A stretch of 64,000 nucleotides of DNA from Vermamoeba vermiformis (GCA_045837725.1 JBEWZL010000041.1:1-64000), one strand, 5' to 3'. Shown: positions 2,795-35,586, counted from the stretch's first letter. Program-made: numbers and translations. The notes: generated by a model from the sequence alone, not told the origin.

Positions 2795-4606
2795 GTTTTC
2801 TTTGTCCGCTTTTAATGCAGATTTGTGGACGGAAGTACTAAAACATGTCGATGTCGCAAGCAGAACTCGTTTACGACAAATTAACAAACAATTTTATAAA
2901 TTTATATTTGGCTCTGGTGACGTAGAATGGCGAAACCGAGTCAGATCAATATTACCAGCAAACAATCAACCGCTTACACCCGAGAAGTTACAGCAACTGC
3001 ATCATTTTGAAAAATTTCAGAAGGAAGCCAATTTAAAACGAGTCTCCTACTTCGATCTAACCCAAAACTTTACGGATGTGTCCCCAGACGGTCTGGATGT
3101 GACAAATTTAAAATGGCATGGCGAAGCTAAGTGCCTGGTTTTCAGCACTGTCGCAGAGGATACAATACAACTCTCCTTGATAGACATTGAAGTCGGAAAT
3201 ATTGTGGCTCGAGATACGTTCGAAGATTTTCGTGCCTATTTAATAGACACTTCAAGTAAGTGTCGTTTTTTTGGCTATGTCGTAGTCCTTATTATTCTTT
3301 AAACTAGGAAAGGAGATTATTATCTGGTTTGGAAAGAAGATTATTGTTTGGAATAAACAAGGCGAAACAGTCTTCTGCATTAACCAAGGAAAATACAAGC
3401 CAATAGGATTTGTTTATAGTTTAGGTAAGAAAAATTGCCACAGATACACAAGCATATGTGCAGTTTAGGATCTAAATTGATTATTTTTAGGGTTTAACAA
3501 TACGTACATGAACATATTGCCTGACAGCATTGAATTATTTGGAGTAACAAAAGAAGAGGGATTTGTGCTAGTGAAGAGAATAATGACCAAATGTGACAAC
3601 AAACCTGTCGAACTGGCCAACAGAGATTCTGATTCTGACAATGATATGGAATATCATTTTGATTGTGTGGACCATTATCTTTACAACTGTTTTCAACTTT
3701 CTGCACAGCAGTAAGTATTATTTGCCAATCTTTGCATTTGACTGTTTTTTACTCTGACCCCAGTCACAGAATAAAGGTTCAAGAAATTAATTTACAAACA
3801 CATGGAATCAGAGAATTCGAGTTACACACAACTCGTGCATTATCCTGCACTCAAGTATTCAAAAAAGATGAACAGAAGTACCTTCTCTTATCAAAAGGTC
3901 AGGTAAACGTACAAAACCCTGTTTTCTAACAAATTGTCACAGGATTATTGTACAACATCACCACTCAACCGTCATTATGCTTTTCAATTGAAGTTGGCAT
4001 GTCTTTTGTATCTGAAGATTTTTGCTATTATGTAGAATGCATTCCTGCAGGTACAACTCAAACAAACAAAACTTAAATTAACTATTGTTGTAACAGAAAA
4101 AAGCAAGGATACAAGTGCCAAGGTTTACGACTTAACATCTGGTGAATTACTATCGCATATACCCTCTCTTGATCTACATGGAGTGAAGGGTCATTGTTGG
4201 CTTGGTTCAAGTCTATTTCTTCATAACAATGCACGGCTACAGGTAACCTAGCAAACTCAAGGGCTGTTTTCCAGTTCGTTAACATCTTTATTTGAGGATT
4301 ATCATGCACCATCTACGACCAATATATCAACACTGCACTCTGATACGAGACAAATGTGGTCTCAAATGTCCCATTATCCAGAGTCCAACATAATCAGCCT
4401 TTTGCAAGTCAACCACCGCAGAAAACCATGTGGAATTTTAACAATGTTTGTTTGACAAAAAGTTGTTTGGGTCACTGTGATACACTGGTCTGCAACATGT
4501 GACATTGCTCAGAGTTTTGTCAAGGAAAGAACAAAATCAAAAAGAACAAAAAGAATTGACTGCAGAGAGGGTGGATTATGATTTATTCAAAGCTACTATT
4601 ACATGA
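2795..4606 (+). CDS. F-box domain protein, multi-exon; 3' exons may be degenerate
   Basis: FNADLWTEVLKHVDVASRTRLRQINKQF is F-box-like. Several GT-AG introns follow. The first exon and the true stop are uncertain. Confidence 0.5.
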
Positions 4607-4624: not shown

Positions 4625-5617
4625 CTACATGAGTTTCCATTCTGTGTATGCAACTAAGAAATTCTTTTTCAGCGGTTGGGGATAGTTTTCTATGTTTTGC
4701 AACACAGCACTCTTGTTTATTCGTGAGTCATTTAATAATAGCATTATTACTGCTTGCTGGTCTGCTAAACATGCGTTGTATAGTGCTTTGCCACCATTGG
4801 GTTCCAATTGTAATGTGCTGTCATTTAACAACTCTTGTACATGAGCAGGATCTCGTGCTTCCCTGCAGGCATATTCAAGATCTGCCAATGTTTGCGGCAT
4901 TTTTTTAATCTCAAGCAATCTTTGTATGATATTTGGGAAATCTCCAACCAGTGGCAAATCCAATGATCGAGCAAGGGGAATAACACTTGGTTGTTCTAAC
5001 AATAAAGTAATTCCTTCCTCCCAGTCACCTTGCACTGCCATTTGTAGTGCACATTCCACTGGGTAGCATCTACTGAGCTCACTTCCATACTCAACAATTG
5101 GAGCTGTTAAATCTATTTGATGATGATTTATGAGTGTTTTTAATTTGTTCAGTTGTTGTTCTTTCAAGGTTATTCGAAGTGTTTGGTTAAAATTGGCTGC
5201 TGGATCTAACAAATTGCTTTCGAGTATAAATTGAAAAATGTTATCGCTTCCATATCCTGCTGCATATGATAATATGGAAAGTCTCTCCGTTATACCATCA
5301 AAACAATCTTCTTCAATGGTGAGGTTTGGGTTGAAATTGAGGAATATTTTAATAATTGATAAATAATCTTCTTGAATTGCGCACTCCATAGCTAGTATTA
5401 AATATTTCTCGGTAACGTTACTTCGTTTCAATATTGTGTCTACTATCGTTGGATTATTGGATCGTGTATAATTAACCAGGAGTTCGTCATTATTGGAATA
5501 ATTATTACATATAATAAAATTAATAGCACGCCAATTGTAATACTTGTTTACATTTAAAAATACTAGAGGAGAAAACGGAAGAATAGTTTCCATCACATCC
5601 GCCGGTAGAATAGACAT
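4625..5617 (-). CDS. Intronless ankyrin-repeat protein with N-terminal F-box-like motif (330 aa)
   Basis: N-terminus MSILPADVMETILPFSPLVFLNVNKYY. Ankyrin-like units include LSYAAGYGSDNIFQFILE, ALQMAVQGDWEEGITLLLE and ALYNACLADQQAVIMLLLND. Confidence 0.75.
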   Translation of the reverse strand: MSILPADVMETILPFSPLVFLNVNKYYNWRAINFIICNNYSNNDELLVNYTRSNNPTIVDTILKRSNVTEKYLILAMECAIQEDYLSIIKIFLNFNPNLTIEEDCFDGITERLSILSYAAGYGSDNIFQFILESNLLDPAANFNQTLRITLKEQQLNKLKTLINHHQIDLTAPIVEYGSELSRCYPVECALQMAVQGDWEEGITLLLEQPSVIPLARSLDLPLVGDFPNIIQRLLEIKKMPQTLADLEYACREARDPAHVQELLNDSTLQLEPNGGKALYNACLADQQAVIMLLLNDSRINKSAVLQNIENYPQPLKKNFLVAYTEWKLM

Positions 5618-5730
5618 TTGTTGCCGTGTTGCTCTGTTGCTATTTAGTTGAAGAATAAATTAATTTAATTTTCGGCTATTACCCGCTGCCGCTTTTTCTT
5701 CCGATTTTTGTGATCTTGAAACACAACAAA

Positions 5731-6677
5731 ATGGAGAGCAATAAACAAGCAGAATATGATCGCAAAGATCGAAAGCGGCTAAATTCAACGATAAACAAAG
5801 TCGACAAATTCATAGCAAGTCTTTCAACGATCTTGATTTTTCAGTGCAACAATGTGGGCTCATTTCAATTGCAACGAATACGAAAATTGTTAAGAGGAGA
5901 AGCTGAAATCGTGCGTGGCAAAGTCGTAAGTAAATTGAAACGCTCGATCTTGTGAAACCTTTAAGAAAAATTAAATGTAACTCTGTATTATTGAGTAATG
6001 CATATTCATACAGCCGAAATGTTAGTATTCTTATTATTCGTAATTTTAAAATTAATTAATAATTTTAGACTCACCTACGAACGGCAATTCAACACCAACT
6101 TGCAGCACATCCAGAACTTAAACCGTTACTTAAGCATATTAAAGGCGAAGTAGGCCTCGTATTTACTAATATGGATATATGGTACATTAAGGATAAGCTA
6201 GAAGCTGAAGCAGTCCAATGTGAAGCGAAGTTGCATTCTCGCGCACCAACAGACATTATCGTTCCAATGGGCGAAACGGATCTAAACCCAGGTCAAACTG
6301 GCTATTTTGCAGCACTAAATATACCAACTAAAATAATGAAGGGCAAGATATATTTTATTCGCGACAATCTCTTGTTCAAGAAAGGCGATCTGATCACTGG
6401 ATCCGCTTACAACCTACTATGCAATTTGAAATTCAAACCAATCACGAAACGAGTAACAGTATCACATGCATATATTAATGGCGTTATAATTGATGAAAAA
6501 ACGCTCAATGAAGTGCCACAACGGCTCGACAAGTCGCTACACGATGGCATCCACTACGTCGCATCGATTTCAGTCGCAATAGGCGCAGCGAATAGGTCAT
6601 CGATGATGTATATACTTCATAGTGGATTGATGAACGTTAAAGCCGTGTCGATTGCACTAACGGATCCGTCCACCTGA
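5731..6677 (+). CDS. Divergent, C-terminally truncated ribosomal protein uL10/P0-like paralog 1 (267 aa)
   Basis: Exons 5731-5925 and 6069-6677. NNVGSFQLQRIRKLLRGEAEIVRGK, LKPLLKHIKGEVGLVFT, YFAALNIPTKIMKGKI and GIHYVASISVAIG align with eukaryotic P0. No acidic C-terminal tail. Confidence 0.85.
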
Positions 6678-6851
6678 TCCAAATAAATCCCGCGTTAATG
6701 ATCGAGTTAGAAAATGCATGATTTTACTCTAATTGATTAAAATATTTAATAGGTTCCAATTATGAGCCACGTGGCTGATTAGACAAAGTGTGATTCGCCC
6801 CTGGTCTCGAGAAAAAATCAGAAAAAAGGTTAGAATTTACGAATAATCACG

Positions 6852-7828
6852 ATGGAGAGCAACAAACAAGCAGAATATGATCGAAAAGATCGCGAGCGAT
6901 TGAAAAAAGCAATTGACAAAGTTGAAAAATTGATACAAAGTAATTCAACAATCCTTATTCTTCAATGTAGTTTAGTAAGCTCATTTCATCTCCAAAAAAT
7001 ACGAAAAATACTTAGAGGAGAAGCAGATATCGTTCGAGGCAAAGTCGTAAGTGACAGTTTTGTCGCGATCTAAATTAAAATTCAGATTCTGTTTTGAATT
7101 TAATGAAGCGTGGCTTTATTTAATTAATTAGAGATATAACTACGTTTTATTGTTCTTAAATATTCTCAGAAATTAATTAAATTTATTAGGCGCATTTACG
7201 AACGGCAATTCAACACCAACTTTCAGCACATCCAAAACTCAAACCGTTACTCCAATATATTCGAGGCGAAATAGGCCTATTATTCACTAATATGGACATA
7301 TTGTATATCAAGAAGAAGATAGAAAGTGAAATAACATTTACTGGAGCAAGATTTAATTCTCGTGCAACCAATGACATTATAATTCCTGAAGGGCTAACGA
7401 TTCTAAACGCAGGAGCCGATTACTCTTTTTCGATACTCAATATACCAACAAAGGTATTACGAGAAAAAATATATATTTGTAATGATTGTCTTCTCTACAA
7501 GAAAGGCGATCCGATAGACATGTACGGATTCAAACTTTTACGCGGTTTGATGATGAAACCGATCATTACACAAGTCAAAGTACTATACGCATATTACAAC
7601 GGACGTATAGACGATGAAAAAACCCTCAATGAAGCACAACAAAGGGTTGACAAGTCGTTACACGATGGCATCCAGAACGTTGCATCAATTTCAGTCGCAA
7701 TTGGCGCAGCGAATAAGTCATCAATGATGTATATACTTCATAGTGGATTAAGAAACGTACGAGCTGTGTCACTCGGAATGGAAGAGCCGCGTACCGAATT
7801 ATTTTCTAACCAATCCGTTGAAAAATAA
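6852..7828 (+). CDS. Divergent, truncated uL10/P0-like paralog 2 (277 aa)
   Basis: Exons 6852-7046 and 7190-7828. Same intron position and P0 motifs as paralog 1. Confidence 0.85.
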
Positions 7829-7976
7829 ATCTATAACCGCAAAATGCTCTTTCGATATTCAAAATAATCCTAATTTACCATTTACGCGCTTAAATTAGCA
7901 TCGTTTGTTGTGGCATGGAATTAGTTGAGAAAATAACTGCCTGAAAAAGATTTTACTTTTTTGACTCAATACCACA

Positions 7977-8920
7977 ATGGAGAACGATATCAACGCAGAA
8001 CTTGAACGAAAAGATAAAGAACGATTGGATGCAGCAATTAAGAAAATTGATAAATTGCTACCTAGTCTTTCAAATATTTTGATTATTCACTGCAGCGATA
8101 TTGGTTCATTTCAAATGCAAAAAATACGAAAATTATTAAGAGGAAAAGCTGAAATAGTGCGAGGCAAAGTCGTAAGTTTATAACGAATTCTGATCGAGCT
8201 CGAAATATTAAATTTTCTTTTAATTCGAAGACTTTTATCAAGCTCCTTTAAGCCCCTTACCCTATTAAATTTAATAATTTTATTTAAATATTTTAGTCAC
8301 ACCTACGAACGGCAATTCGACGCCACCTTTCAGCACATCCGGAACTTAAACCGTTACTCCAACACATTAAAGGCGAAATTGGCTTAGTATTTACTAATAT
8401 GGACGTATTCTATATTAAAAACAAGATCGAATCTGAAACAGTCGCCAGCGAAGCTAAACCAAAATCACATGCACCATGCGACATAATAATTCCTGGTGGA
8501 GAAACGGTTCTGGATCCGGCCAAGACAACATTTTTCCAAGCATTAGGCGTGAATACGAAGATTATGAAAGGCTTAATTTATATAACGAGCGATTACACGC
8601 TTTTCAAAAAGGGTGATCTGATCACTGCATCCGCTACTAAACTATTACAACTCTTGAATATGAAACCAATCACTAAACAAGTCAAAGTACTATACGCATA
8701 TGTTAATGGCACTATACTCGACGAAAAAATTCTTGGTGAAGCACAACAACAGCTCGACAAGTCGTTACACGATGGCATCCGAAACATTGCATCAATTTCA
8801 GTCGCAATAGGCGCAGCAAATAAGTCATCAATGATGTATATACTTCATAGTGGATTGAGAAACGTACGAGCTGTATCACTCGGAATGGAAGAGCCGCGTA
8901 CCGAAGAACTAAAACAATAA
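7977..8920 (+). CDS. Divergent, truncated uL10/P0-like paralog 3 (272 aa)
   Basis: Exons 7977-8171 and 8297-8920. LDPAKTTFFQALGVNTKIMKG and KKGDLITASATKLLQLLNMKP are closest to canonical P0. Confidence 0.88.
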
Positions 8921-9157
8921 TTGTTTCGTGCATCTGACTGTATTAAACTAACCATTATTCCTTTTATGTCATATGACTTAATTCCTCGCCAGAAATTTGG
9001 TCAGACTCCATAATGTCATTTCCTGCGGATTAGCAAACCCGAAGTACTCCGTACTTGCAAAAGAATGGAAGAAGCAGAGAATTGGAGTTTCATGTTAAAC
9101 GCCCTTTAAACCGATGAAAACATTGAACTGAAGGTAAACCAATGTTCAAAATTAATT

Positions 9158-10720
9158 TTATTTCTTTTCAAGTGCCATTTTTCTGCCGAGTTCGGTCAAC
9201 AAGCCTTCGTCGTCAAGAGCACCTAACTCGTGTAGCGTGTGAAGTTCAGATAGCAAGTTCGTCTCGTTAGGCGCATCAATGAAGTCAAAATCGAGGAAAT
9301 CGTTGACGCCTACAGCTTTCAAAATCAAAACTGCAAGAGTCAAGTTGACACGCTGGATCTCGAACACCGGAGATTCAACCAGTTCGTTCTGATACGCTGA
9401 GCCTGTATATAATCGATAACACTCGCCAGGTCCTTTACGACCAGCACGGCTGGCTCGCTGTATAGCCGTGGCCTTGCTGACGGGGGCAACGAGAAGTTCG
9501 TCTTTCTGAGTCAGCGAGTTGTAGACCTTGTGTTTGACGAAGCCTGAATCCACTACGTATGATATTCCGTCGATTAAAACTGATGACTCTGATGCACTGG
9601 CGGCAAGCACAACCTTTCTGGATCCATGCGGGGCTGGTTTGAATATATCGGGCTGCATTTCCAACGGCAGTAATGAGTGGATTGGCAAGATGGTGAGTTC
9701 GGGAATATTTTCTCCTAGAGCCTTTGCACGTTGCGCTAAACTCTGAGATGCTGTATCGACTTCTTTTTGATCAGCTAAGAAGACTAGAATATCACCTGGT
9801 GGCCGCGTCAAATGGATCTGAAGAACGGTGATCAATGACGCTTCAACCGGGTTCTCTTCTGGCTCTTTGGTATAAAATATATTTACAGGAAATGCTCTTC
9901 CAGGAATAGCGAACATTGGGCTCGAGTCGAAGTACTTTGAGAATTTTTCTGCTGCACCTGTCGTTGTGGATGTGATAATCAACTTCAAGTCTGTGCGCTT
10001 AGTACAAACTCGCTTCATCAGTCCGAACAATATATCCGTATTAATCGTACGCTCTTGTGCTTCATCAAGGATAACAACGCTGTACTGTTTGAGATCTGGA
10101 TCCACCAAAAATTCTCGGAGAAGCACTCTGTCAGTCACGTACTTGATCTTGGTTTGATCTGATGTGCAATCTTCTAATCGTATTGAATAGCCTACTTCTT
10201 CTCCAAGACGGCAGCCATATTCTTCGGCGACACGATTGGCTGATGACACCGCAGAGATACAACGAGGTTGCGTGCAAGCGATTTTGCCGAATGAAGTGTA
10301 GCCAGCCTCTGCCAAGTACTGTGTGAGCTGAGTGGTCTTGCCGGACCCAACTTCACCGAAAAGGATCAAGATCTGGTTCTCTTGAACGGCTTTGAGGAGG
10401 TCTTCTTTGAAGCGAAAGATTGGTAACGACTCCTGGTGTTCTTTAAATGATTTTTGTGGTGCTAATGGTTCTTCTTCTGGTTTTAAGATAGCTTTCAGAT
10501 GATTGACAAGTTGAAGAAGATTTTTTGAATATTGTTCTGAAAAATCGAATCCGTGCTCTACTAATGCTGTTTGGAACTGTTCTATCGCTGAATTTTGCTC
10601 AGCCAAATTAATAAGTAATTCTGCTTTGCTCTTGTCTCCAAAGCCCAACTGATTCTCCAGTTCTTCGAAGATCGCTGACACGAGAGACACCTGCCGAATC
10701 TTTTGGACTGTCTCCATCAT
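9158..10720 (-). CDS. Intronless Prp22/DHX8-derived DEAH-box helicase-like protein, internally deleted and C-terminally truncated (520 aa)
   Basis: DHX8-type N-terminus ([19 protein letters not shown]) is followed directly by the helicase core: [56 protein letters not shown]. It ends at [10 protein letters not shown]. Confidence 0.85.
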
Positions 10721-10865: not shown

Positions 10866-12226
10866 ATGCCAAGAGCTGCTACTAAGTTTAAGCTCTTATT
10901 ATTAGCTGGCTGCCTTGTATTTGTATGCTTGTATGTTCTGCAGATCGGCATAAACGCAAATCCAACAGTTCCAAACTATACAGAACCCGTTACAGTGCCT
11001 AAAATATATTCAAATTCTTCATGGACATTAGTAATTGGCGTTGTATTAAAAGCAAGCAATTTTGAACGAAGAAATGACATCCGAAAATCGTTTATCAATT
11101 TTTATGAAGATGTATACTGTCCCTATTGCGAAAAGAGCCGACATAATAGTCCAAAAGTAATCATAAAACTTTACCATAACCGGCTATTAATATAAATAAA
11201 TAGGTGCGAGTATTCTTTTTTATTGGACACGAAGAAAAATGGTTTGGCGAAGCGAAACTTGAAGAGGCAATCCGTGAAGAGCAACGAAAATATGATGATG
11301 TAGTATATTTAGAGCATATTAAGGAAAATATGGATGAAGGCAAGACGTTTGAGATGTTCAGCTGGATCGCGAAAAATCTAAACTCGCAATACGTAATGAA
11401 AGCAGACGATGATAGCTATATTATCATCCCTAATATACTTAAAAGACTATCAGAGGTCGAGAATATGTTCTCCTCGCCAGGTAAACTTCGATCTTCGCAA
11501 CAAAAAATTAGACGGATTTTCCGACCATTCTGAAGCTATTTTTGACGCTTATACCGATAGATTATGGAGTTTACTATGGATACATATTGAATCCAGGAAG
11601 TTCTAAAGTATCCGGCTCATTTATGGCTGGCATGGGGTAAGTTAATCGCCCTCTGTTGTTTTGTCAATTCTAACTACTTTCTACCATCTTATAGATATAT
11701 TATGAGTCGCGATATCCTGAATTATATTACTACTTCCAAAGATATCAATAAGATTGGCTTTGAAGATCACGTTGTTGCGGATGCAGTTCATCAGTACGTT
11801 AATGCAAGTAAGTCATCGTGTACAGACCATTCTTTACTTAAAATATTTAATAACGCCAATAATTAATCTGAATAATCAGATCTAGAGGCTAAGAACAACA
11901 AGAAAGTCGTTTTCATTGGAGATCGCATCCGCTTTCATGATTTTCCTTCGTACAAAGGACCAGTCTCGTGGGAATTAAGCTGTAATGATATTGTTATACA
12001 TCAACTCAAATCTGATTCGCATTACCAAGCGACGTATTCTTACTTCTCAAACTGCTGTTCAAACAACAACGCAGATCTGCCGCCAATTTGTATAGACCCA
12101 CCGAAAAGCAAAACGACCTGTAGCAATGGAAAATATGGAAGAGAGTGTATGAAAGAAATGTATATTCGTATCGAAGTTGAGCCAGGTTATGAGTACATCG
12201 ATGACTGTAAATACGATACAAAATAA
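10866..12226 (+). CDS. Glycosyltransferase family 31 (beta-1,3-galactosyltransferase-like), type II membrane protein
   Basis: N-terminal TM segment, ERRNDIRKSF, EEQRKYDDVV, ENMDEGKT, YVMKADDDSYI (DxD), FMAGMGY and GFEDHVV across about six exons. Confidence 0.85.
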
Positions 12227-12443: not shown

Positions 12444-14366
12444 TTACAAGAGAGATTTACCGTGAGCAGTCAAGATCAGATCGACGCCCAATGCAACGGT
12501 CTTATTGACTTCTCCGCCCAAGTAACCTCCAATATCGCAACGAATAGTCTCAGGCGTCTCCTTCGGGTTAATCTCGACGAGATCCATCGACATAAGCTTG
12601 CCGGTAGCAACGAGTTCTTCAATCAAATACCGGCTTTCACGTACAGTCAAGCCGCCCATAACTTTAGTACCTATAATAAGCCGACAGTGTTAGTACGTGG
12701 ACGAAGTATTATAGTGTTGAAAGAATACTGGTCCGAGATCCAAGCGTGCAGATCTCGGTCCATCCGCAACAAATTTTTTCTTTTCAGCTGCGAGTTCAAA
12801 ACGAATCATATAATACATACCGGTGCTAGGAGCATAATAAGGATCAATGCCATCAATATCAAAGCTCAAGTGAATAGGACGATCGCGCCGCGGGTTGACG
12901 TGATCCAAAGCTTGCTTAATTACTTCAGGCATGCCCAATTTATCCACTTCTGTCATTGAGAACGCTTTGATATTTAATTTCTTTAAGATCTTCTTCTCGC
13001 CTTCATCAACATCACGCAAGCCAATGAAAACCTAGAAAGGTCCGGTTAATTCTTTCCATAAAAATAGCGTCCAATGAAGGACTATAAATAGAAATGCAAT
13101 CTTAAGAGTCAATTTAATTCTTCTTGCAAATAAGATCATGCAAAGCACAAGAAAATTAACACGTGCAAAAACTTTGTCGAGCGCACTCTATGAAAAATCG
13201 AATAAAAAGTTCGCAGAGAATTGGCATAATAATTGATTATTAATGACTATATAATGCGTTGTTATTAAGCGCTAATAATATGCTGCTCGTGGCAATCTCA
13301 ATAAATTTTTCCACGCGCAGTTGTGTTTTTTGAGACTACAACACATTTAGAATCAAATTAATCAAAAAAAAATATCGATTTTCCCAATGATTATTATAAA
13401 TTATGATATATATTAACAGTACTTACGATGCTATCAGGCTTCAAGCAAGGCTCCAACCAAGATAATCCAGGGACTGATTTTGCATCGAATTCTCCGACCA
13501 AACCAGCCACAGGCATACCTATATTAAGCAATTATTAACATGAGAAATAATTAGCATTTCTTTTGACAAAATTTTCGATCAGATCTTTGACTCACAAAAT
13601 ATATTCGAAATTCGTAACCTCTGAGGACATTTATAATTTAATTCAAAGAATGAATTATATGATATATTGAATGATTTCGTTGAACGAAAATGTTACCGTG
13701 GATGTGTCCTGATCCAGAAGTCTCCGGTGTGTTAATATCAGCATGAGCGTCTACCCAAATAACGCAAGTATCAGGGCGTGCCTTCATAATGCTATACAAA
13801 AGTTTGCGACGATAAGTAACCGAAATCAACCGACGGATGGAGATCGTAAGCGAACATCCGCAACTCGCTGCTTACCCTGAAATAGAACCAAGAGCAATGC
13901 TATGATCTCCTCCAATAATAGTAACTAAGTTGTCACGATCTCGAGCCTAAAAGGGGTGATGAATAAACGCGTCCTTTTGTTAAAGTAGATGTTGATGCGA
14001 CTTCAGCTTACATGTTTATAGACTGCATCGTGTATTTTCTTGCATGCGTTAGAGCACTCTTCGGGGCTCATAAGACGCTCTCCCTAATTTTAGAAATATT
14101 TCCATTAATAAAAAAAAATTCTGCGGAGCTAATTGCGATCGTTGGATGGGAATTCAATTGCCTTTGCCAACACTTACAGCTTTTCTCGTAGCTACACCAA
14201 CAGGAATATCAACGTTTCCTGCATCTTCCACGCGAAAACCTAAAGACTTGATCTTGTCGGCCAATCCGGTCTTGCGGAGCGCATCAGGAGCAGTCTCAAC
14301 ACCAGAAAGCTCTTGTCCAAAGGCAGACGGAGCTCCAATAATTACAGACTGTCTTTGAAGTTCCAT
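12444..14366 (-). CDS. ARG1: Arginase
   Basis: Metal-binding and signature motifs across six to seven exons: [32 protein letters not shown](MP), [26 protein letters not shown] and MDLVEINP. Confidence 0.95.
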
Positions 14367-14742: not shown

Positions 14743-16451
14743 TTAAACAATGTTGACCGAGTTGAAGAACTTTGAGTCGTATGCTGTTGAATTTTGATGC
14801 TCTATCAACAATCTAGTCACAGCTGACTCAGCGTCGTCTCCACCGCCAACATCAATATTATACACGCTGTTTGATTGAGTTACTTTCGTCAAGTCACCTT
14901 CTGACTTAGGTCGTTGAATAGGCCACGCAGTAGTAGGCTGGACTTGAGGAGTGACGAAGGTCGTGATCTCGGGTGTGATCAAGATCGGCATCACGTTCTT
15001 CGCGTGACCTGCAGGAGGCGGTGTAGCAGTGCCAGTAGCACGAGCACCCTTAGCACCATATGTAGTAACATCTGTCAGTTGTTGACTGTTCAATGAGCGA
15101 TGGCTATGACCGGCTGGTTTGGGAGTCTTCATTTCAACAGGCGTGAGTAACTGGCCATTATTAGATGACCAATACTTCGGCATTGCGGTCGCTGCTCTCT
15201 TCTTATCGCTCGCGGACGAGGCACTGCGTGTTCTTCCGAGATCCGGAGTTGATGAATGTCGATCACCATTGTTCGACACCAACACGTTGAAACTGTTGTA
15301 ATAACTCGGATTGTAGTAGAGGTCCGCAGTAGACAAGTCACTGTCGCTAGTGTTTGCTGAAACTGATCCATAGGAGATGAATTTTGTCTCGATAACTGGC
15401 GGTGCGAGCAGATTCGTTGTAAGGGTATTGTTGCTGTTGTGAGTTGCTTCATTTCTTCTAGACTTAGTGGAATGATAGCTGAATGCGCTTTCAGTCTTCT
15501 TGCGTTGAATAATCTGGAATAGCTTGACGATTCCGAAAATTACGGATTCGATCAGGATCACGGCGCCCCAAATGCAGAGAGGCCACATGAACCACATATC
15601 CTCGCTTTGACCATTGAAGTACCAAATTCCGACATTCATGCCATTGATAACGACGAAAAGCATTATCTGAGGCAATAACAAAATTTGTCGCAAATCCAAG
15701 TACACGGCGGTAAAGTGGATCGTGAGTGCAACACCACTGAGGCCAAGGACGAAGAATAGCCAAGGGTGATGCACGCTGTTGAAGTACCATAGTAAGAATA
15801 ACACCATGTCGAAAGTCGCTGCAACGGATGTGTGGAGTAAAAAGTACAATTTCGATCGGCTTTCGGGCTCGGTCTCCAAATCTGCAGTTTCTTTGAAATA
15901 AACGACTTCCCATATGAGTAAATAGACGCCCATGACGATGAGGAACCAAGGAAATTCTTTGCTAGGTCCCAACAAGCCCCAAGCTGTAAAATGATTAGAT
16001 CATGAAAAAGTCAAGGGGTGCCAGATGCATTTCGCGAAATAATAAATTATTGATAATAGGTAGTTATAAGAGTCAACATATATTAAAATTAAAGCCAAGA
16101 AGGGAAAAATTAAATGTCTGAACATTCCTTCGAATGTGACAAATAGTGTTCCGTATCACGTATTTGGACCAATTAGGCCCGAATTATGAATATTAAAATA
16201 AAGTAATGCTTACCGACTACGGAAAAAAGACTAAGAGCCATAAACCCAAGGAATCTAACGAGATTTTGATGGTTTCGCTTCAGTTTTTCTTCTTGATCAT
16301 TCTGCGGTTGCTTTTCGACTACTGATCTTTCATATCGACGTGGGCAATCAGGAAAATGGTCCTTTCGTTGTCCTTTATAGTCCCACCGATCGTACAGTGC
16401 CACTCCGCAGGTGTCGCAGAACGGATTCTCTACTGTTGTTCTATTATTCAT
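14743..16451 (-). CDS. Multi-pass membrane protein with long low-complexity C-terminal tail, function unknown
   Basis: Exon 1 (~16213-16451) includes CDTC...HFPDC. Exon 2 (~14743-15985) encodes five to six hydrophobic helices and then an S/T/P-rich tail. Confidence 0.7.
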
Positions 16452-23483: not shown

Positions 23484-26400
23484 ATGCGCGTTGTAAATAT
23501 TTTATGCGTGTTGTTACTGGTACTGATCTTGGATCCAGCGTCCTGTCAGCCAGCAAAGAAAATATTAGTCTACTCGCAAGACAATTCTCCATTCAATGTC
23601 GCTCTCCCTGGTGCGCGCAAAGCCTTGGGTGACCAAGCTTTAGTGCGAAATTGGCATATGGACTTCAGCCAAGATGTCGGATCTTTTGTGGACAACACTC
23701 TCTTCCAATATGACGCCGTAGTGTTCTTACTCACTAATGGTGTTGCCCTCAATGCCGACCAAAGAGCTTCGTTGCAGCGATATATTAAGGCTGGTCGTGG
23801 ATTCGCTGGTATTTCGTCGGCCAATTTCAACAATGCTGATTGGGACTGGTATAAACAACTCATTGGTTCTAGCATTCCTGCCGACAAGCCCTTCCTTTCC
23901 CTCCAAAATGCGCAAGTTCGAGTGCCCGACAGAGTGCACCCCTCTACAAGAACTTTGCCGGAATATTGGCCTCGATCGGACATCTGGTAAGCGTTTTTAC
24001 TGAAAATTTCGGCGTAAAGACGCCTTAGTAGCGATGTTTTGAATTCCTCATTGCGATTACTTTACCAAATTACACCTATTTTTACGTATATTAGGAATTT
24101 TTTCTAATTTCAACCGACGTTGACGAATTTAGTTGAGATCTACCAACTTATTAATCGTTTACGCACTGTCCAACTCGCTTAAATGCTGACACTATATATT
24201 CAGGATTGATTATGATGTCTCTCCTCGCCTCAATGCTCACGTTTTAGCAATCGTAAATGAGAGATCGTACACTGGAGGCTCGATGGGCCCAGATCACCCA
24301 ATCGCTTGGTGCCAATTATACGACGGTGGTCGTTCATGGTAAGTCATAATAACAATGTTTTACTATCGCCTCGAATTGGGCCAATACGAAGGATCCGAAC
24401 ACAAGTCAGTAAGAAATTTCGAGTGTTTTTGGCTGACTCGTCTTTGTGTTCTACTTCGGATTAATATTAACCTTGATCTAAATAATGTTTGCATGCATTA
24501 AAGATTATAAAGAGGCAAACAATACCGATTTGGAAAATAAGATTTTAAAGAGTGATCGGATCTAATCGTATTTGAATAGGTACACTAGCGGAGGAGGTGT
24601 AGCTGCTGCTTGGACCGAGACTGAGTTTGTTGGTAAGTTTGCCGATAGTTTTTCGGCACTGACGCCGCGGTTCACTTGCGTAACGATACGTTGAGCAAAT
24701 TTGATATAGATCTCACTACAACATATCAGTTAGTTCACATTATTGAAACGTTTGTGTTTTTGGGGTCACTATGATATTGCAACACTGATTCATAATCAAA
24801 ATATGAAACTAATGGCTCCGTTTGGCAGGTCATGTCGTGCAAGGTATTTCTTGGGCTAGCGGAGAAAGCGCCGGTGACTGCACTGCTACCGTAAATGCTT
24901 ACTATGAAAAACGAGTGGTCGATACTACCGCTGAAATGGTAATTACGATGGAATTCCAGTTTACTGTCGAACCCAGAAACTCATCCGAACTTTTTCAAAT
25001 TTTAGCCTATGGAATTGGCTCCTACTCCTGATGGCCGCGTCTTATATATTGAAAGAGCTGGTAAGCTCAAGATCTACAAGCCTGACGCAGACACTACTGT
25101 TCTCGCCGGCAAGTTGGATGTAAACTACAACTTGGAAGATGGTCTTTTGGGCTTGGCACTTGACCCTAACTTCGCCACTAACAATTGGATCTACTTATAC
25201 TACACTCCTAATGGTCAAACTCCCGAAAATATTCTTTCTCGCTTCACTATGAACGGAGATCAGCTGGACATGGCTAGCGAAAAAGTTATGCTCCGCATTC
25301 CTACTCAACGATTGATGTGCTGCCACTCTTCGTAAGTCAAATATTAATATTTGAATACCTGAAAATTATTCGCAGCATGAATAAGCAATATTTAAACGAA
25401 AAGTTGGAACTTAGCTAATTCTCCGAATTTTCTAGCGGTCATTTGTTATTCGACCAAGCAGGACATCTCTTCATGACTATTGGTGATAACACTAGTCCTT
25501 ACGGTTCAGATGCATTCTCCCCCATTGATGAGCGTCCTGGTCGTTTCCCTGGTTACGATGCTCAAGGAACTGCCGCCAATACTAATGACTTGAGAGGAAA
25601 GATCTTGAGAATTAAGCCCGAATCCGATGGTACTTACAGCATTCCTCCTGGTAACTTATTCCCTGGTACGTACTGGATGCGGATGTGGCCGAAATGAACA
25701 AGTTTTAATCTTCATATTATTAGCTGATGGAAGCCAAGGCAAGCCCGAAATTTACATTATGGGTGTCCGTAGTCCTTTTCGTATGGCTATCGACCCTCTC
25801 GACAACACTTTGTACTGGGGTGAAGTCGGTCCTAACGCCGAAGCAAATCCACTTCGAGGTCCTACTGGTGTTGACGAAATTAACGTCGCCAGATCTGCTG
25901 GTAACCACGGCTGGCCTTATTGCATCGGAGATAACAAGCCTTACATCGATTACGACTTCGCTACTGGTGTATCTGGTAAACCTTACGACTGCAGCAATCC
26001 TGTTAACGACTCTCCGAACAACAATGGTGCTCGTAACTTGCCTCCTGCTCGCCCTGCTCTTATGTGGTACAATTACGGTTACTCAGCTGATTGGCCCGAA
26101 TTTACTGACGGCAAAGGTCGAACTTGTAAGTCAAGATCCGGATCTTCCTCTCGAATTGGTACTAATGATTTATTATAGCTATGGCTGGTTTCTTCTATCG
26201 TTACGATGCCAACTCTAAGGCTCCTTACAAGTTGCCTCAATATTTCGATAACACTTTGATCCACATGGAATGGTCGCGTAACTACTTGACTGAAATCAAG
26301 ATGGACTCCAACAACGCTCCTTTGTCTCTTTCTAGAATCTGGACTTGGACCGGCGATGCTACTAAGGAGTGGCACGCACCAATCGATATGGTGCTCCATC

Positions 26401-29139
26401 CTGACGGATCCATTTACATTGCTGAATGGGGTATTGATTTCCAAGGCAGTCAATCTCGCATTAGCAGACTCCGATACCAATTGCGAGGCCAAGATCCTGT
26501 TTGCGTCATCACCCCCTCTAAGAATGCTGGTGTTTTGCCTCTCGAAGTTACTTTCTCAGCTGAAGGATCTGTCGACTACATGGGCGGATCCGTTACCATG
26601 AAATGGGACTTCAATCTCGACGGCAATCCCGATGCTGAAGGTATCTCTGCTAAGCACACATTCAACACCCCTGGTATTCAAGTCGTCAAGTTGATTGTGA
26701 CCGACAGCGCTGGAAGAAGCTCCGGATGCACAGCCTCAATTATTGCCGGCAACGACCCTGCTAAGATTACTTTGGACATTCCTGTTCCTGGTAGCATCTT
26801 CAACTGGGGTGACACTATCCCTTACCGCGCACGCGTTGACGATCTTGAAGACGGTAGCACTGCGTAAGTCCCTTACAAAATTTTATCAATTTTATTTCCA
26901 CGAAGCTAACTCGACTATTTTAGCGCTAATCCTCCTACTATTGACTGCTCGAGCTTAAACGTTCTTCCTGGCCTCGGCCACGATCGTCACACTCACTCTG
27001 GTTTGACTTTCGAAGGTTGCAGCGGTCAAGTCGTTACCTCATCCGAAGGTCACGACACGAGTACTGACAACTTGTACTTCGTGCTCGACATTCACTACAC
27101 TGACCGTGGTGCTCCTAACAACGTTCCTAGTATCACCTCACGAGTTTCATTGGCCTTGCACCCCGCCATGACTTTGGCTGAGTACTTCACTAACTCCTCG
27201 GGCACTGCCTTGACGACTCAAGGTGACGGCCCTGGTCAACAAAAAGTCAACGACATTAACGACGGTGATTGGTTGATGTTCTCTGACTACAGTTTGCTCA
27301 ACATTGACACCGTTACTGTTCGTGCTTCATCTGAGAACCAAGGAACTGTTGAGTTCAGAATTGGATCTCCTACCGGTAGACTTCTTGGATCTGGTGAGTA
27401 ATCCACGCAATTTGGCTTACGAACAAGTATTAATATTATCGCTCTAGTCGCTGTTTCGAACACTGGTGCAAATACCTTCCAAGACTTCACTAGCCCAATT
27501 TCTGACTCGCATCAATACATCCAAATCGAATTCCCCTCGCAAACAACTATTTCCAAGTTGACCCTCAACTCTGGTGCCAACGATTACCCTGCTCGTCTTG
27601 GATTGATGATTGCTCGTAACATGGGCGAACCGAATCCTTATGGTGATCCCGTTGACTTTGTCGCTATTCAAGACGGCGCTGAAACTACGACTTTTGAATT
27701 CATTCCTCCTTTGAGCGACATTAAGCGTAAGTATTAGCAAAGCTTAATATTTCTGTACGATGATAGGGCTAATAATATTGTTAGAACTTCGTGTCTATCA
27801 ATTGGGTAGTGACGCTTCTCGCACTTGGGCCGTTCATGAAATTATTGCTCTCGACTCTGACGGCAATATGATCGATACTTCTGGCTGGAACTTGGCCTCG
27901 ACTTGCAACAACGACGGCAATGAGCTTAAGCAGGCCATTGACAACAACCAAGGCACCGCTTGGAGCTGCAAAGAGCCTATTGCCCCTGGTACTCAGAACT
28001 TGTTCTTGGTGTTCAAGGCCTCCAGTGGCAACAAAAACAACTTGATGACTTTGCACTGGTTCAGATTCAACGGCCGTGGTGTTGCTGGCACTTCAACTCT
28101 CGTCAAGGCCATTGACTGTGGTTTGACCGACGCGGAAAGCTTCACTGGTTCCGACTCCGTTGTTTACTCCGCTGACATGTACTACTCTGGCGGTGACACT
28201 GTCAAAGAAGTTGAATCGATTACGCGTACCACCGACGATCTCTTGTACGGCACTCAACGTGTTGGCAAGGAGTTCACTTACGCCATTCCACTTGACAATA
28301 ACCAACCGTACCAAATCACACTTAAATTTGCCGAGCTTGTCCACAACACTAGCGGCAAACGAGTATTTGATATCTATGGAGAAGACAGAATGATGGTGTC
28401 TCAGTTCGATATCGTCAAGTCCATTGGAGACAGATACACGGCCATCGATCTTGAGCGCACGGTAGTTCTTCACGACGGTACTCTCAATTTGAAGTTCTCG
28501 GCCTCAGTAGACCAAGCCAGCATTGGTGCCATCGTCGTCTCGAAGTTGTTGCAAAGCTCTCGTATCACACAGATCCCTGGCATGATCAAGGGCTCGTACT
28601 ACCGTGATGGTGGATCTGGTATTGGCTATGTCGACGCTACTCCTGGTAACAGCGGAGGTGGTTGCAGAGCTGATGACGTCGATCTTAAGTCGTTCAACAA
28701 CCCAGCGAGCAACTGTTACGTCACTGACATTGAAAGTGGCGAGTTCTTGCAGTACGATCTGGATGTCGGAGTTGATGACGTCTTCAACATCGAATTCCGA
28801 GTCTCTTCTAACGACAAGGATACCAAAACCTTCGAGATCTATTTGGACGATCAAGCTATCACCGACACTGTTCAGTTTAGCACTGATGGATCTGAATCCA
28901 ACTGGATCACCGTGCAAACTGAAACCAAGACCACTTTGAACCGTGGATACCACTTGCTTAGAGTTGTGGCTACTTCTTCAAACTGGAACTTCGACTCGAT
29001 GAACTTCATTTCTAAGAACGGATTGACTCCAAGCTCCTTGTCTCCGACCACGAACAACAACCAAAGCAGCCCTGCCGTATCACTATTGACTCAACTTAGC
29101 TATGGATTGGTTGCTTTGATCTTCGCGATGATGGTTTAA
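23484..29139 (+). CDS. Secreted, probably GPI-anchored multidomain protein: ThuA-like + glucose/sorbosone dehydrogenase (GSDH) propeller + PKD + CBM6 (with inserted F5/8C) + malectin + CBM6
   Basis: Signal peptide; ThuA-like YDAVVFLLT...DHPIAWCQLYDGGRSW; GSDH EDGLLGLALDPNF, CCH, DLRGKILRIKP, GNHGWPY; PKD WDFNLDG; malectin ITLKFAEL...GKRVFDI; CBM6 IESGEFLQY. Ends with an S/T linker and hydrophobic C-terminus. About ten GT-AG introns. Confidence 0.9.
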
Positions 29140-29374: not shown

Positions 29375-31291
29375 ATGTCTAACAAACGAAAGATCGAGGA
29401 TGACGACGTAGATCTGCCAAACAAGGTTAGAATTTAATAACAATAATTTTTCTTTCAAAAATGTAATAGAAACGTTTCTTTAGCGCCAAAAAATCGAAGA
29501 AAAATCAGACAACGATGATGCATCAAAAGAGGACGATTCTGAGGATTTAAACTCTGAAGACAGCCGATCAGATTTTCACGATTACCAAATCAGAGATTTA
29601 TTGGCGCCGCATGAGCTCTATATACTCAAAAAAGATCCACTAAACAAGGAAATATTCGCAGACGTCTATAGCAACGATATTACAAGACAACGAAAGCGAG
29701 ATCTAGATCCTGCACCGTTGTTTAGTACATCCGATTTGCTCCTTCCAATAGATACGATTGCATTAGTACTGCAACATTGTAGTGCCGATACCATATTATG
29801 TTTTTCTATGACAGCCAAAGCAATGTTGCCAATTATATTTCGAGCGCGCAGATGGCGGCTTCCACACGATCTCAAGAACTTTTACTTCAATCGAGATCAG
29901 CAACGATATAATATCAATATCAAAGACGATGTTGACTGGATTGAGGAGTATAAGCGGAACAGTTTCAATGCCAAACGGATTCAAGATCTGATCCAAGAAA
30001 TTTCGAGAAAGATAACGGAGCAGCCTGATATTAGCTGGAAAGATGAAAATGATAAGAATTTACTTTATCCTGGGCTATCAGATGACGAGATCGATGAATG
30101 GGAGCGAAAAAATAATTATTTGTTGACGAACGATCTACGCCAACTTTACAAGGTAGGTTCAAAATTAAAGAGTATATTCTATAATAGCGTCAATAATTAT
30201 AGTGTTGTAATGGTGCGAAATTTCGTATGGTCGATTTGGAAGGCGAAAAATTGATGGTTGATTACTGGCTGCAAGTACCAGATTTTTTCCTGCCAAAGCT
30301 CGAAAACGTAACCGTCAGCAATGAATTTTCACTGAAAAGATTAGAAACTGCAGCAGCGGATGGAATTTACTTTGATGAGATGGAGCATTCAGATGATGAC
30401 GAGGTGTATGAAGATACAAATTTTTTGACGGAACTTGATCCGCGGATCTATCATGATCGCCTGCAGCGGGAGAAAGTTACATTGACTGAAGACGATTTCA
30501 AAAGCGACGAATCAGACGAAAGTTATCGCGAAATTTCAAACGATGGAGACCATAAGATGAACGAGTACGCTCAAGAAACATTTACTAAACAAGGCGACAG
30601 TGACGGGGAGTCATCGGAGAATTCTTCGGAGTATTCTTCGGAGAATTCTAGCGACGGAGAAATTCTACCGAACGACAATGGGTTGAAAATAATGCTGAAC
30701 TTTGGCCAATGCAGGGACATTTCAAATCCAGACGATCCTTGGAACGAAGCAGGAACGTATGAATTAATGTACGAGCCTATTATGGGTTGTATATACACCA
30801 TCATGCGAGTATTGCCGTCGAAACAAGTTTGTTTTGCAAATAACTACAGATCCATCGTGGAATGGCTCCAGGAAATTTCCGATCACTTAGATGATCCGCG
30901 ATCTCATTACTGGGTAGTTTCAATCCCACGCCACGATGGTCCATTTCTTATTTTGAACAAAGATCCTTGGGGCTGGCGAACTCTCGACACCGATCTCGGA
31001 GATTTTTGGGACAAATTTCCGTGGGCGCTGATCTGCGCTGAAATATTGCAGTATAATTATTTCGACAATGAATTATTGTATATGCCTCCTAGATGCAACA
31101 AAATGCTAGCAGCAGCAGCTCAAGAGTTCATGGTCAAAGTTTTTGAACGAGCCAATCAGCTCGAAACAAGCGATCATCTTCGTGCTGAAACACTCGCTGT
31201 GGCCGCTAAAGAATTAGGACTGAGTGGATACGAGAAAATAAGTTTCAAGAGATTTTTCCACACTGGAGACGATAAAATTATTAAGTTGTAA
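29375..31291 (+). CDS. F-box + SMI1/KNR4-like domain protein
   Basis: F-box LPIDTIALVLQHCSADTILCFSMTAK. SMI1/KNR4-like LYPGLSDDEIDEWERKNNYLLTNDLRQLYK(CCNG). Three exons. Confidence 0.7.
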
Positions 31292-33852: not shown

Positions 33853-35586
33853 TTACAAGAATGAATCAACAGGTTGTATTTCCGTGCGATACGAGTCGAA
33901 GATGGACTTGACGAGTGGTTCAAATGACTTCAATCCTGGATAACGAACGTAACTGAAGATTAACTGCCAAATCTCACGAGGGAGCTGCATGAATAAGTCA
34001 CTTCGAGCAATGGCGTGCATGATTACTGCTGTGTCTTCGTATCGTTGTTTAATTAACTCGGAATTGCGTCGTGAAATTTCGGGTCCATTACTGATGTACG
34101 TGCATTCTATTTTTGTAAGCACGTAGTTATTTTCCAACGCTTTGATTAGAGCTAACTGTGTTTCTTTGTTAAACGGCTGGAACGAATGTACTGACAGTTC
34201 GCGCAAGGTCTCGCTGGTGTTTATAATCTCTATCAATTCGTTCGAGTGTATTCCACCAGCTGCTTTAATAGACAGCGCTTTTAACGTAGTGTTTTGCTTC
34301 ATGATGTTGCTGTAGAACTGCGGAAGTTGTTCGCTCAGATTATTCATGTTGACACGTGTCATTGATCGTCAACGCTTGTTCGATGTCTTGCTGAATCTCA
34401 CGCGAGAATCTTCCAGCAAGCGAAGGGCTTTTGAGAGTCTTATTGTTCTTAATCAAATTGTCCAAGTGCTTTAAATCGCCCCGTGGGGTTAATGTCAGAT
34501 CTGTGATGGATGCGTTCGCCGAAAGTGCCAAGAGCAGCGCGTCGTGGAATTCTTTTTCTGAAAATTTGAGTTTTCCAAGTATTTCTAGTTTGCGAAGTGA
34601 CTGAATTGTCTTCAAGAATTGCATGAACGGCGTTGCTGAGCCAGAAATGAACACATCGCAAAGTGTCAAACTTTTCACTGAACAGTTGACTGTCAATCCA
34701 TCGAAGAATCTTTGCAATGCTTCTGAAGGCTCGGGCGCGACATCTATTGAATCGAGACGTATCTCGGTGAGTGTCCTGTTGCTTTTCAAACAATCCCCAA
34801 GTGGTCCAATGTCAAGCTTAGTGTCCTGTTTGGTCAATAGACCCAAGGTTACAGATGGTCTAATAAGGCTGAGAACTGTCACTGACTTGTTGTGCTTGAG
34901 ACCCTCGGCCAATGATTGCATTTCTTGAGCCGAAAGAAAGCAACACACTTTGAGCTCAGTGATGACATTGTTGATGGTCAAAAAGTTGAAAAAGTTTACT
35001 GCTGCGTTTGCGTCTATCGCGGTTTGGAAACTCTTATCGCTCCAAAATGAAGGTTCGTCGCTAATTTCCAATTTTTTGATCATTTTGTTGCGCGCAAGAC
35101 CGTGTGAAAGCTGCCTCCAATCGTTGGGCACAGATCGATCTAAATTGGCTTTTAAATTCGTAATTGAAGTGTTGTTACCAATAGCCGCATATAAGTAGCT
35201 GCGATTCGTACCATGGCTCGCCGAAAAAGTGAGATCCAGTGTTTTAAGCGTAGATGTTTGAGACAATGCAGATCCAAAGCACTTGAAATCACATTTGAAC
35301 GGAAAATTGTGCGACAAAATAAGAGTTTCGATTAAATATTCATTCGTTCGGAGGGTTTGAGCTAGCCACTCTTCGAAACGACTCGCATCTGCGATTTCAG
35401 TGTCCACCTCCGTTCGCTTGAGTATATCTGACCGCTGTAAATATTCATATGCGTTTCTAGAACCATTTCCTGTGATTTTCTGATTTATGCAAAGCTGTTA
35501 GTATTTTTTGAATTATTTTTGACGAAGGATCTCCTTACCACCCCAAAACATCGGCCAAGCCTGGTAGCAATAACCTTTACATTCAT
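33853..35586 (-). pseudogene. RNI-like leucine-rich repeat protein with C-terminal F-box-like motif; frameshift near 34355
   Basis: Repeats of the type LAEGLKHNKSVTVLSL and LGDCLKSNRTLTEIRL. ORFs 34340-35407 and 33853-34362 overlap in different frames with no intron between them. C-terminal LPREIWQLIFSYV. Confidence 0.7.

Follow-up and report, generated by a model that had tools for sequence, protein, structure and literature searches.

Three paralogs of the ribosomal stalk protein uL10/P0 that lack the acidic tail, and a shortened derivative of the spliceosomal helicase DHX8/Prp22, were found side by side in DNA of Vermamoeba vermiformis. Together with an ankyrin-repeat gene they occupy positions 4625–10720 of a stretch of 64,000 nucleotides (GCA_045837725.1 JBEWZL010000041.1:1-64000), which was analysed over its full length and is called the window here. 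The P0-like genes (P0a, P0b and P0c; Table 1) are maintained under purifying selection and are not decaying. On balance, we consider it probable that the P0-like genes and the DHX8 derivative are real, selectively maintained and lineage-specific derivatives, with the P0-like proteins acting at the uL10/Mrt4 site as tail-less modulating, placeholder or silencing variants and the DHX8 derivative being a non-translocating RecA-core protein. Their co-location is best explained mainly by local gene duplication in a fast-evolving region.

The P0-like proteins were assigned to the uL10/P0 family by several matches. The exon 1 open reading frames (ORFs) of P0a, P0b and P0c matched Ribosomal_L10 (PF00466) with 23.6, 22.4 and 26.0 bits (cut-off 22.8), and exon 2 matched RL10P_insert (PF17777) with 50.7, 28.3 and 65.1 bits (cut-off 29.1), P0b lying marginally under the cut-off in both cases. 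The corresponding E-values for P0a were 5.6e-5 and 1.7e-13. In tblastn searches with the canonical protein P0128, all three first exons were matched at 45–54% identity; P0a was 39% identical over 196 aa and P0b 34%. Exon 2 of P0c matched PDB chains of eukaryotic P0 with an E-value of 3.4e-39. Its AlphaFold2 model (48-sequence alignment; mean pLDDT 83.9) had two long terminal helices at residues 143–171 and 179–195, and Foldseek aligned the model with human and yeast ribosomal P0 at a TMq of 0.60–0.67. Mrt4, the nuclear pre-60S placeholder paralog of P0, was considered as an identity and rejected, with E-values of 1.7e-6 and 9e-4 for its PDB chains and a TMq of 0.36–0.49. The sequence matches and the predicted structure thus point clearly to uL10/P0 and not to Mrt4.

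Canonical P0 carries an acidic C-terminal tail that recruits translation GTPases. In P0a, P0b and P0c there was no Pfam match to the acidic tail family Ribosomal_60s (PF00428), and all three stopped ahead of the hinge and the tail when aligned with 40 canonical P0 proteins. A tblastn search with three canonical P0 queries (E ≤ 1) found no tail remnant in the window, and the 149–236 bp downstream of each stop codon leave no room for a tail exon. The three tail-less paralogs described in the initial annotation were hence present where it placed them, without hinge or acidic tail. The alignments of P0c extended to residues 253–264 of yeast P0 and 254–265 of human P0. According to the excerpts of PMC3794597 used here, yeast P0 binds P1/P2 through sites within residues 198–258, and its last 21 residues form the conserved functional tail. 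Since the alignment reaches yeast residues 253–264, the P0-like proteins span the counterpart of this P1/P2 region in full length. Conservation was scored, as the mean of the three paralogs, over those columns in which canonical P0 shows at least 90% conservation. By this measure, 20 of the 36 conserved columns were kept in the insertion domain and 0 of the 3 in the tail.

Pairwise comparison of P0a, P0b and P0c gave amino acid identities of 64–65%, synonymous divergence (dS) of 0.71–0.83 and ratios of non-synonymous to synonymous divergence (dN/dS) of 0.29–0.38. With the genes divided into three regions, nine comparisons by region and pair arose. In none of the eight that were computable did dN/dS exceed 0.5; in the ninth, domain II of P0b versus P0c, dS was saturated. 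There was no sign of positive selection in the insertion domain (dN/dS 0.14–0.50 where computable, with saturated dS and a crude method). Regional dS reached saturation in the insertion domain, with lower values at the two gene ends. Nucleotide identity among the three genes was 71–76% in exons and 48–54% in introns. The 3' ends of P0b and P0c (7610–7828 and 8700–8920) shared 92–97% of their nucleotides, as against 42–58% in the parts encoding the insertion domain, a mosaic that suggests gene conversion between members of the array. The copies are therefore old and partly homogenised, most clearly P0b and P0c toward the 3' end.

Constraint was also visible in the comparison with a close copy. 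Contigs of a DNA run with the same species label carried a copy of the P0-like region that was 95–99% alike. The coding variants listed between the two (n = 27) comprised 18 synonymous and 9 non-synonymous changes, and 8 variants were listed in introns; 27 further differences exist beyond the variants tallied. With approximately 180 synonymous and 620 non-synonymous sites per gene, the listed variants correspond by arithmetic to a ratio of approximately 0.15. Neutral substitution was simulated in 2000 runs, which were scored for a stop-free frame. A frame of the size of P0c stayed stop-free in 5.7% of runs after 46 amino acid changes and in 0.45% after 92, so that the open frames exceed what chance alone would yield.

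Relatives of the P0-like proteins were few. A word-based search of 5.8 billion proteins returned three among 166 candidates: an ORF from another NCBI-sourced record that was 95% identical to P0c (P0001), and two proteins that were 59% (P0002) and 53% (P0003) identical to the P0-like proteins, whose clusters added P0004–P0006. All these relatives lack a tail and end within a few residues of the end of the window proteins; P0002–P0006 (53–59% identity) were found on contigs of up to 459 kb. The C-terminal helix region is the most conserved part inside the family. An exhaustive HMMER search, run against 1.84 billion representatives, returned 1561 matches with E ≤ 0.001, and the tail-less kind made up two clusters only. 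The next match after these clusters was canonical P0, and identity to any canonical P0 was at most 42%. None of the 256 pattern matches in a metagenome scan with the P0-like alignment was confirmed, nor was any of the 258 in a scan of viral contigs. No description of a tail-less P0 paralog family was present in the full-text literature searched, whose coverage ends short of subscription journals and supplements. Many replacements of canonical residues, PH to MY and F to I among them, were family-wide, being common to the window copies and their relatives. Identical replacements of this kind indicate a burst of change followed by new constraint, not random decay.

In a maximum-likelihood tree of 35 rows, whose root position is open to doubt, the six P0-like proteins formed a clade with 100/100 support on a stem of approximately 2.1 changes per site. 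The clade joined the canonical lineage of P0128, P0285, P0286, P0290 and P0292 plus P0296 (support 100/99). P0b was the most divergent copy, with a terminal branch of 0.51, and P0c the least diverged. The relatives nested among the three copies of the window (97/93), so that at least one duplication may predate the split from them; gene conversion and the long stem add uncertainty here. The P0128 lineage carries a normal acidic tail (PF00428), and its best named relative is an amoebozoan P0 with 59% identity. Names attached to the closest canonical P0 clusters were those of a red alga and of birds only, which is uninformative, and a bdelloid rotifer origin, considered in view of bacterial-like genes and animal-like PDB matches, was rejected. 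It shares the signature QCSNVGS.HMQKIRKILRGEA with exon 1 of the P0-like genes. The genomic ORFs of this lineage (P0289, P0291 and P0292) begin at Met65, which suggests an intron near the intron site of the paralogs and hence a duplication at the DNA level rather than a retrocopy.

The DHX8 derivative matched human DHX8 with an E-value of 3.1e-191 overall. Its residues 3–98 correspond to residues 20–117 of the human protein, and residues 89–516 to residues 555–981 of 1220 (E 4.4e-176). Relative to human DHX8, approximately 437 internal residues (RS and S1 regions) are deleted and approximately 240 C-terminal residues are lost. The N-terminal domain, RecA1, RecA2 and the first ~25 winged-helix residues are retained, the match to HA2_N covering profile positions 2–25 of 29 only. 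The derivative had no match to OB_NTP_bind, HA2_C or S1, unlike canonical DHX8 proteins, and tblastn found no remnant of the missing parts elsewhere in the window. The initial annotation was right that a deleted Prp22/DHX8 derivative lies here; its RecA core is collinear, and it shows both an internal and a C-terminal loss.

The retained core is altered as well. Across 52 canonical DHX8 proteins, 209 columns showed at least 98% invariance, and 44 of these were changed in the derivative, all core motifs included. The changes were GETGSGKT to GEVGSGKT in motif I, TQPRRVAA to TQPRCISA in motif Ia, IRFED to IRLED in the segment of that name, DEAH to DEAQ in motif II, SAT to STT in motif III, LTGQEEI to LADQKEV in motif IV, TNIAETS to ASASESS in motif V and QRAGRAGR to QRASRAGR in motif VI. 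The loss of effector parts claimed for the cluster was confirmed for both kinds of protein, comprising the hinge and acidic tail of P0 and, for DHX8, the RS/S1, ratchet and OB parts and the canonical motifs II, III, V and VI.

Over the same 428 columns, the derivative was 61% identical to the 52 canonical DHX8 proteins, which are 81% identical among themselves. From these identities, approximately 125 amino acid changes were estimated for its own branch. A simulated DHX8-like frame remained open after ~125 changes in 0.05% of runs. An open frame of 520 codons being that rarely expected, we conclude that the derivative has been a maintained coding gene through most of its history and is a pseudo-helicase, not a helicase. 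The best 120 of 2742 hits contained a single close relative, P0007, which was identical at 481 of 520 positions (93%), without gaps and with the same start and stop, and carried 41 of the 44 changes. A metagenome scan with the alignment of the derivative returned one locus (L001), an unrelated, intron-bearing canonical DEAH gene of 51% GC whose neighbours included no P0-like and no ankyrin gene. The earlier claim that the genes are maintained rather than decaying was upheld for the P0-like genes and the DHX8 derivative by the dN/dS between paralogs, the stronger conservation of exons than of introns and the truncated forms conserved in other genomes.

All five reading frames of the cluster were uninterrupted in the ORF calls and gene models, and the 113 bp given by the initial annotation between the ankyrin and P0a start codons was exact. 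The P0-like genes form a head-to-tail array with ATG-to-ATG spacings of 1121 and 1125 bp, which indicates a tandem triplication. Their introns (GTAAGT...TAG; 143, 143 and 125 nt in P0a, P0b and P0c) share an identical phase-0 site; the window is eukaryotic, with spliceosomal introns. The stop codons of P0c and the DHX8 derivative are 236 bp apart. The spacer between the ankyrin gene and P0a may be a candidate bidirectional promoter. The upstream regions of P0a, P0b, P0c and the DHX8 derivative had no motif of at least 10 nt in common, sharing AT-rich 7- to 9-mers only. An Rfam scan of the window returned no RNA family.

Table 1. Genes and spacer of the cluster, with positions in the window.
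Feature	Position	Strand	Basis
Ankyrin-repeat gene, 330 aa, single exon	4625-5617	-	ORF and Pfam Ank_2
Head-to-head spacer, 113 bp, ankyrin ATG (5617) to P0a ATG (5731)	5618-5730		Coordinates
P0a, tail-less uL10/P0 paralog, 267 aa; exon 1 5731-5925, intron 5926-6068, exon 2 6069-6677	5731-6677	+	Gene model, Pfam
P0b, tail-less uL10/P0 paralog, 277 aa; exon 1 6852-7046, intron 7047-7189, exon 2 7190-7828	6852-7828	+	Gene model, Pfam just under cut-offs
P0c, tail-less uL10/P0 paralog, 272 aa; exon 1 7977-8171, intron 8172-8296, exon 2 8297-8920	7977-8920	+	Gene model, Pfam, PDB match
DHX8/Prp22 derivative, 520 aa, intronless	9158-10720	-	Match to human DHX8

We propose the following course of events. 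An old tandem triplication would have given rise to three copies of a P0-like gene that derived from the lineage's own canonical uL10/P0 by duplication at the DNA level, probably with the parental intron kept. The P0-like gene would have lost the flexible hinge and the acidic C-terminal tail, then passed through a burst of change, after which the family came under purifying selection. The P0 fold appears to be retained, from the rRNA-binding and insertion domains to the pair of long C-terminal helices that in P0 bind P1/P2. We infer that the P0-like proteins would bind the ribosome, most likely at the uL10/Mrt4 site of the GTPase-associated centre of the 60S subunit, in competition with canonical P0. 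The outcome would be ribosomes or pre-ribosomes whose stalk base has no factor-recruiting tail of its own, with a modulatory, placeholder or silencing role rather than that of a fully active stalk. Data from yeast mark out the range of outcomes: P0 that lacks its last 21 residues depends on P1/P2 for its function, and removal of the entire C-terminal domain makes P0 Mrt4-like (excerpts of PMC3794597). In the DHX8 derivative the P-loop, the D-E of motif II and the motif VI arginines remain, and it may still bind nucleotide. It would be incapable of Prp22-like RNA translocation, since the DEAH histidine, SAT and motif V are gone, together with the hook-turn phenylalanine and all C-terminal domains responsible for closing the RNA tunnel.

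A number of observations weigh against this explanation. In the rRNA-binding domain, 9.3 of 17 canonical-conserved columns were kept in exon 1 and 5.3 of 8 in residues 66–108, and the GKNT of canonical P0 reads GKV[T/A/S]. In the C-terminal helix region, the counterpart of the P1/P2 site, 4.3 of 14 were kept, and the partner of these helices may have changed. Long-branch effects could have influenced the position of the P0-like clade. For the DHX8 derivative, a simulated neutral frame was still open in 10% of runs after 39 amino acid changes, and the differences from P0007 fell on 9 of 209 invariant and 17 of 219 variable columns, which was not significant (Fisher p 0.16). Three RNA runs with the same species label yielded 0, 0 and 7 reads at ≥95% identity; they apparently come from a diverged strain or paralog and so do not bear on expression of the cluster. 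The seven reads mapped to 11267–11475, in the neighbouring galactosyltransferase gene, and their clipped parts resemble a diverged homologue of the window sequence. The claim of the initial annotation that the derivatives keep their binding surfaces can accordingly be retained in part: the P0 fold and the length of the helices stood, but most of the conserved P1/P2-region columns did not, and the DHX8 derivative is without the RNA-tunnel domains.

Comparison with known systems places the proposed derivatives between several precedents. The P0-like proteins share with canonical uL10/P0 (RPLP0) the fold and the domain order (rRNA-binding domain, insertion domain and C-terminal helices); it is their best match in both sequence and structure, and the tree derives them from one canonical P0 lineage. 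They differ from it in the absence of the hinge and acidic tail, in identities of at most 42% with many invariant residues replaced, and in forming a tandem array of three copies. Mrt4 is likewise a uL10-family protein without acidic tail, and the P0-like proteins could plausibly occupy the same rRNA site as placeholders or competitors. In contrast to Mrt4, they arose independently and recently from P0, and their insertion domain and helix region are P0-like. They can also be regarded as natural, C-terminally shortened counterparts of the yeast constructs P0-C (minus 21 aa) and P0D7 (minus 132 aa), as described in the excerpts of PMC3794597. However, the P0-like proteins end in between these two, with approximately 50 residues missing and the counterpart of the P1/P2 region present, and are heavily diverged elsewhere, so neither phenotype is simply transferable.

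For the DHX8 derivative, DHX8/Prp22 was by far the best match, with the N-terminal domain and both RecA domains collinear with human DHX8; the differences lie in the missing RS/S1, ratchet, OB and C-terminal domains, the altered motifs and the lack of introns. DHX32 offers a likeness, being a retained DEAH protein in which motif III has changed from SAT to SSP, motif VI is not conserved and helicase activity is doubted (excerpts of PMC7988694). It belongs to another subfamily, however, is not derived from DHX8 and is not described in those excerpts as lacking a whole C-terminal module. The Prp22-K512A protein differs from the derivative as well, as it is a full-length mutant that keeps the domains absent here.

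Among the other explanations, one that we regard as unlikely, yet as the most serious competitor, takes the P0-like proteins to be working components of specialised mature ribosomes, in which their helices would anchor P1/P2 and yield a four-tail instead of a five-tail stalk at certain life stages. Ribosomal protein isoforms usually diverge far less than the approximately 2.1 changes per site of the stem, and the few canonical columns kept in the P1/P2 region, together with family-wide swaps such as PH to MY, speak against this reading as well. On the other side, the counterpart of yeast P0 residues 198–258 is full-length, predicted to be helical and the most conserved part within the family, and yeast P0 minus 21 aa supports growth given P1/P2 (excerpts of PMC3794597).

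The initial annotation had proposed a single co-regulated system, made up of the ankyrin gene, the P0-like genes and the DHX8 derivative, whose products would act as decoys or dominant-negative inhibitors of translation and splicing and would be induced in infection or dormancy. We consider this improbable. The acidic tail is the docking site of toxins, and a toxin decoy would require precisely this missing part. That the three P0 copies are neighbours follows from their being tandem duplicates. For the DHX8 derivative and the ankyrin gene, linkage to the array is seen at this single locus, and the upstream regions share no motif of at least 10 nt. In favour of such a system, effector parts are gone while the folds remain, the genes are maintained and the head-to-head spacer measures only 113 bp. 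Moreover, the ATPase-dead Prp22 K512A is dominant-negative and blocks mRNA release (excerpts of PMC7935899), but docking of a K512A-like kind on the spliceosome appears doubtful for a derivative without OB, ratchet and S1. The composition of the P-stalk matters for translating late mRNAs of a large DNA virus (excerpts of PMC11834158). For the present it is enough to assume chance adjacency in a fast-evolving region, because the neighbourhood is rich in ORFs without family matches and also holds bacterial-type carbohydrate genes. An equally speculative extension, to which we give little credence, would see the tail-less P0-like proteins as a third natural uL10 class beside P0 and Mrt4 that is loaded on the 60S subunit to give stalks incapable of recruiting elongation factors, as a brake in dormancy or infection, with the DHX8 pseudo-helicase as a parallel brake on splicing, the whole being a shutdown toolkit of disabled copies.

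Least probable of all is that the genes are duplicates in decay brought together by chance in a duplication-rich region, either pseudogenes or copies that died only recently, with frames still open by luck: although 12 of the 20 further ORFs scanned in the window had no Pfam match and the DHX8 derivative is truncated, intronless and motif-degenerate with no significant recent constraint, this is opposed by a dN/dS of 0.29–0.38 at a dS of 0.7–0.8 without stops in three genes, by exons still at 71–76% identity where introns are down to 48–54%, by the conservation of the truncated P0 form in relatives at 53–59% identity, by 18 synonymous against 9 non-synonymous changes among the variants listed, by neutral simulations that leave frames open in 0.05–5.7% of runs, and by P0007, which shows the 520-aa frame and the motifs too.

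The first gene of the cluster had been annotated as an F-box/ankyrin gene. Its ankyrin part was recovered by Pfam (Ank_2, E 1.6e-8, 35.5 bits, cut-off 27.3) in three stretches. The F-box part was not, as Pfam gave no F-box match for the whole protein at E ≤ 0.1 or for its first 60 aa at E ≤ 10, and the N-terminal resemblance is one seen by eye only. An ORF at 2802–3302 (+; 166 aa) had a weak F-box match (E 0.00099, 19.4 bits) below the cut-off of 20.5 bits, and the ankyrin protein showed no similarity to this ORF. By language-model features, the clusters nearest to the ankyrin protein were ankyrin proteins recorded from Nucleocytoviricota (score 0.96); with neither alignment nor E-value, this is no more than a lead.

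Further features were observed around the cluster. A gene of the galactosyltransferase family (PF01762, E 3.7e-11) at 10866–11533 (+) faces the DHX8 derivative head-to-head, the two ATGs being separated by 145 bp. A short ORF at 12444–12659 (-) matched the C-terminal end of the arginase family (E 2.3e-6) and probably represents the final exon of a gene for an arginase- or agmatinase-like protein. At 23484–29139 (+), a run of ORFs encoded bacterial-type carbohydrate domains, namely ThuA (E 1.3e-23), glucose/sorbosone dehydrogenase, PKD, and malectin with CBM6/CBM35 (E 3.5e-27 and 1.7e-15). This run may represent horizontally acquired genes or one multi-exon gene. The GC content was 0.47 at 26–28 kb and approximately 0.36–0.40 nearby. 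ORFs of 311–410 aa without a Pfam family at E ≤ 0.001 were located at 14743–15975 (-), 30227–31291 (+), 34340–35407 (-) and 38485–39420 (-). Between 40 and 58 kb there was no ORF of at least 150 aa.

To our knowledge, P0 is usually encoded by one highly conserved and essential gene, and among its tail-less relatives Mrt4 alone is widely known. A lineage-restricted, maintained family of tail-less P0 proteins in a three-copy array would therefore be a natural experiment on a stalk base without its own factor-recruiting tail, with implications for ribosome heterogeneity and for translational control in protists. The DHX8 derivative, for its part, represents a natural spliceosomal DEAH helicase cut down to a motif-altered RecA core. 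If neither protein is expressed and bound to its parent machine, the locus would be an ordinary product of duplication and divergence. If either is, it would provide a directly testable case of regulation by disabled paralogs.

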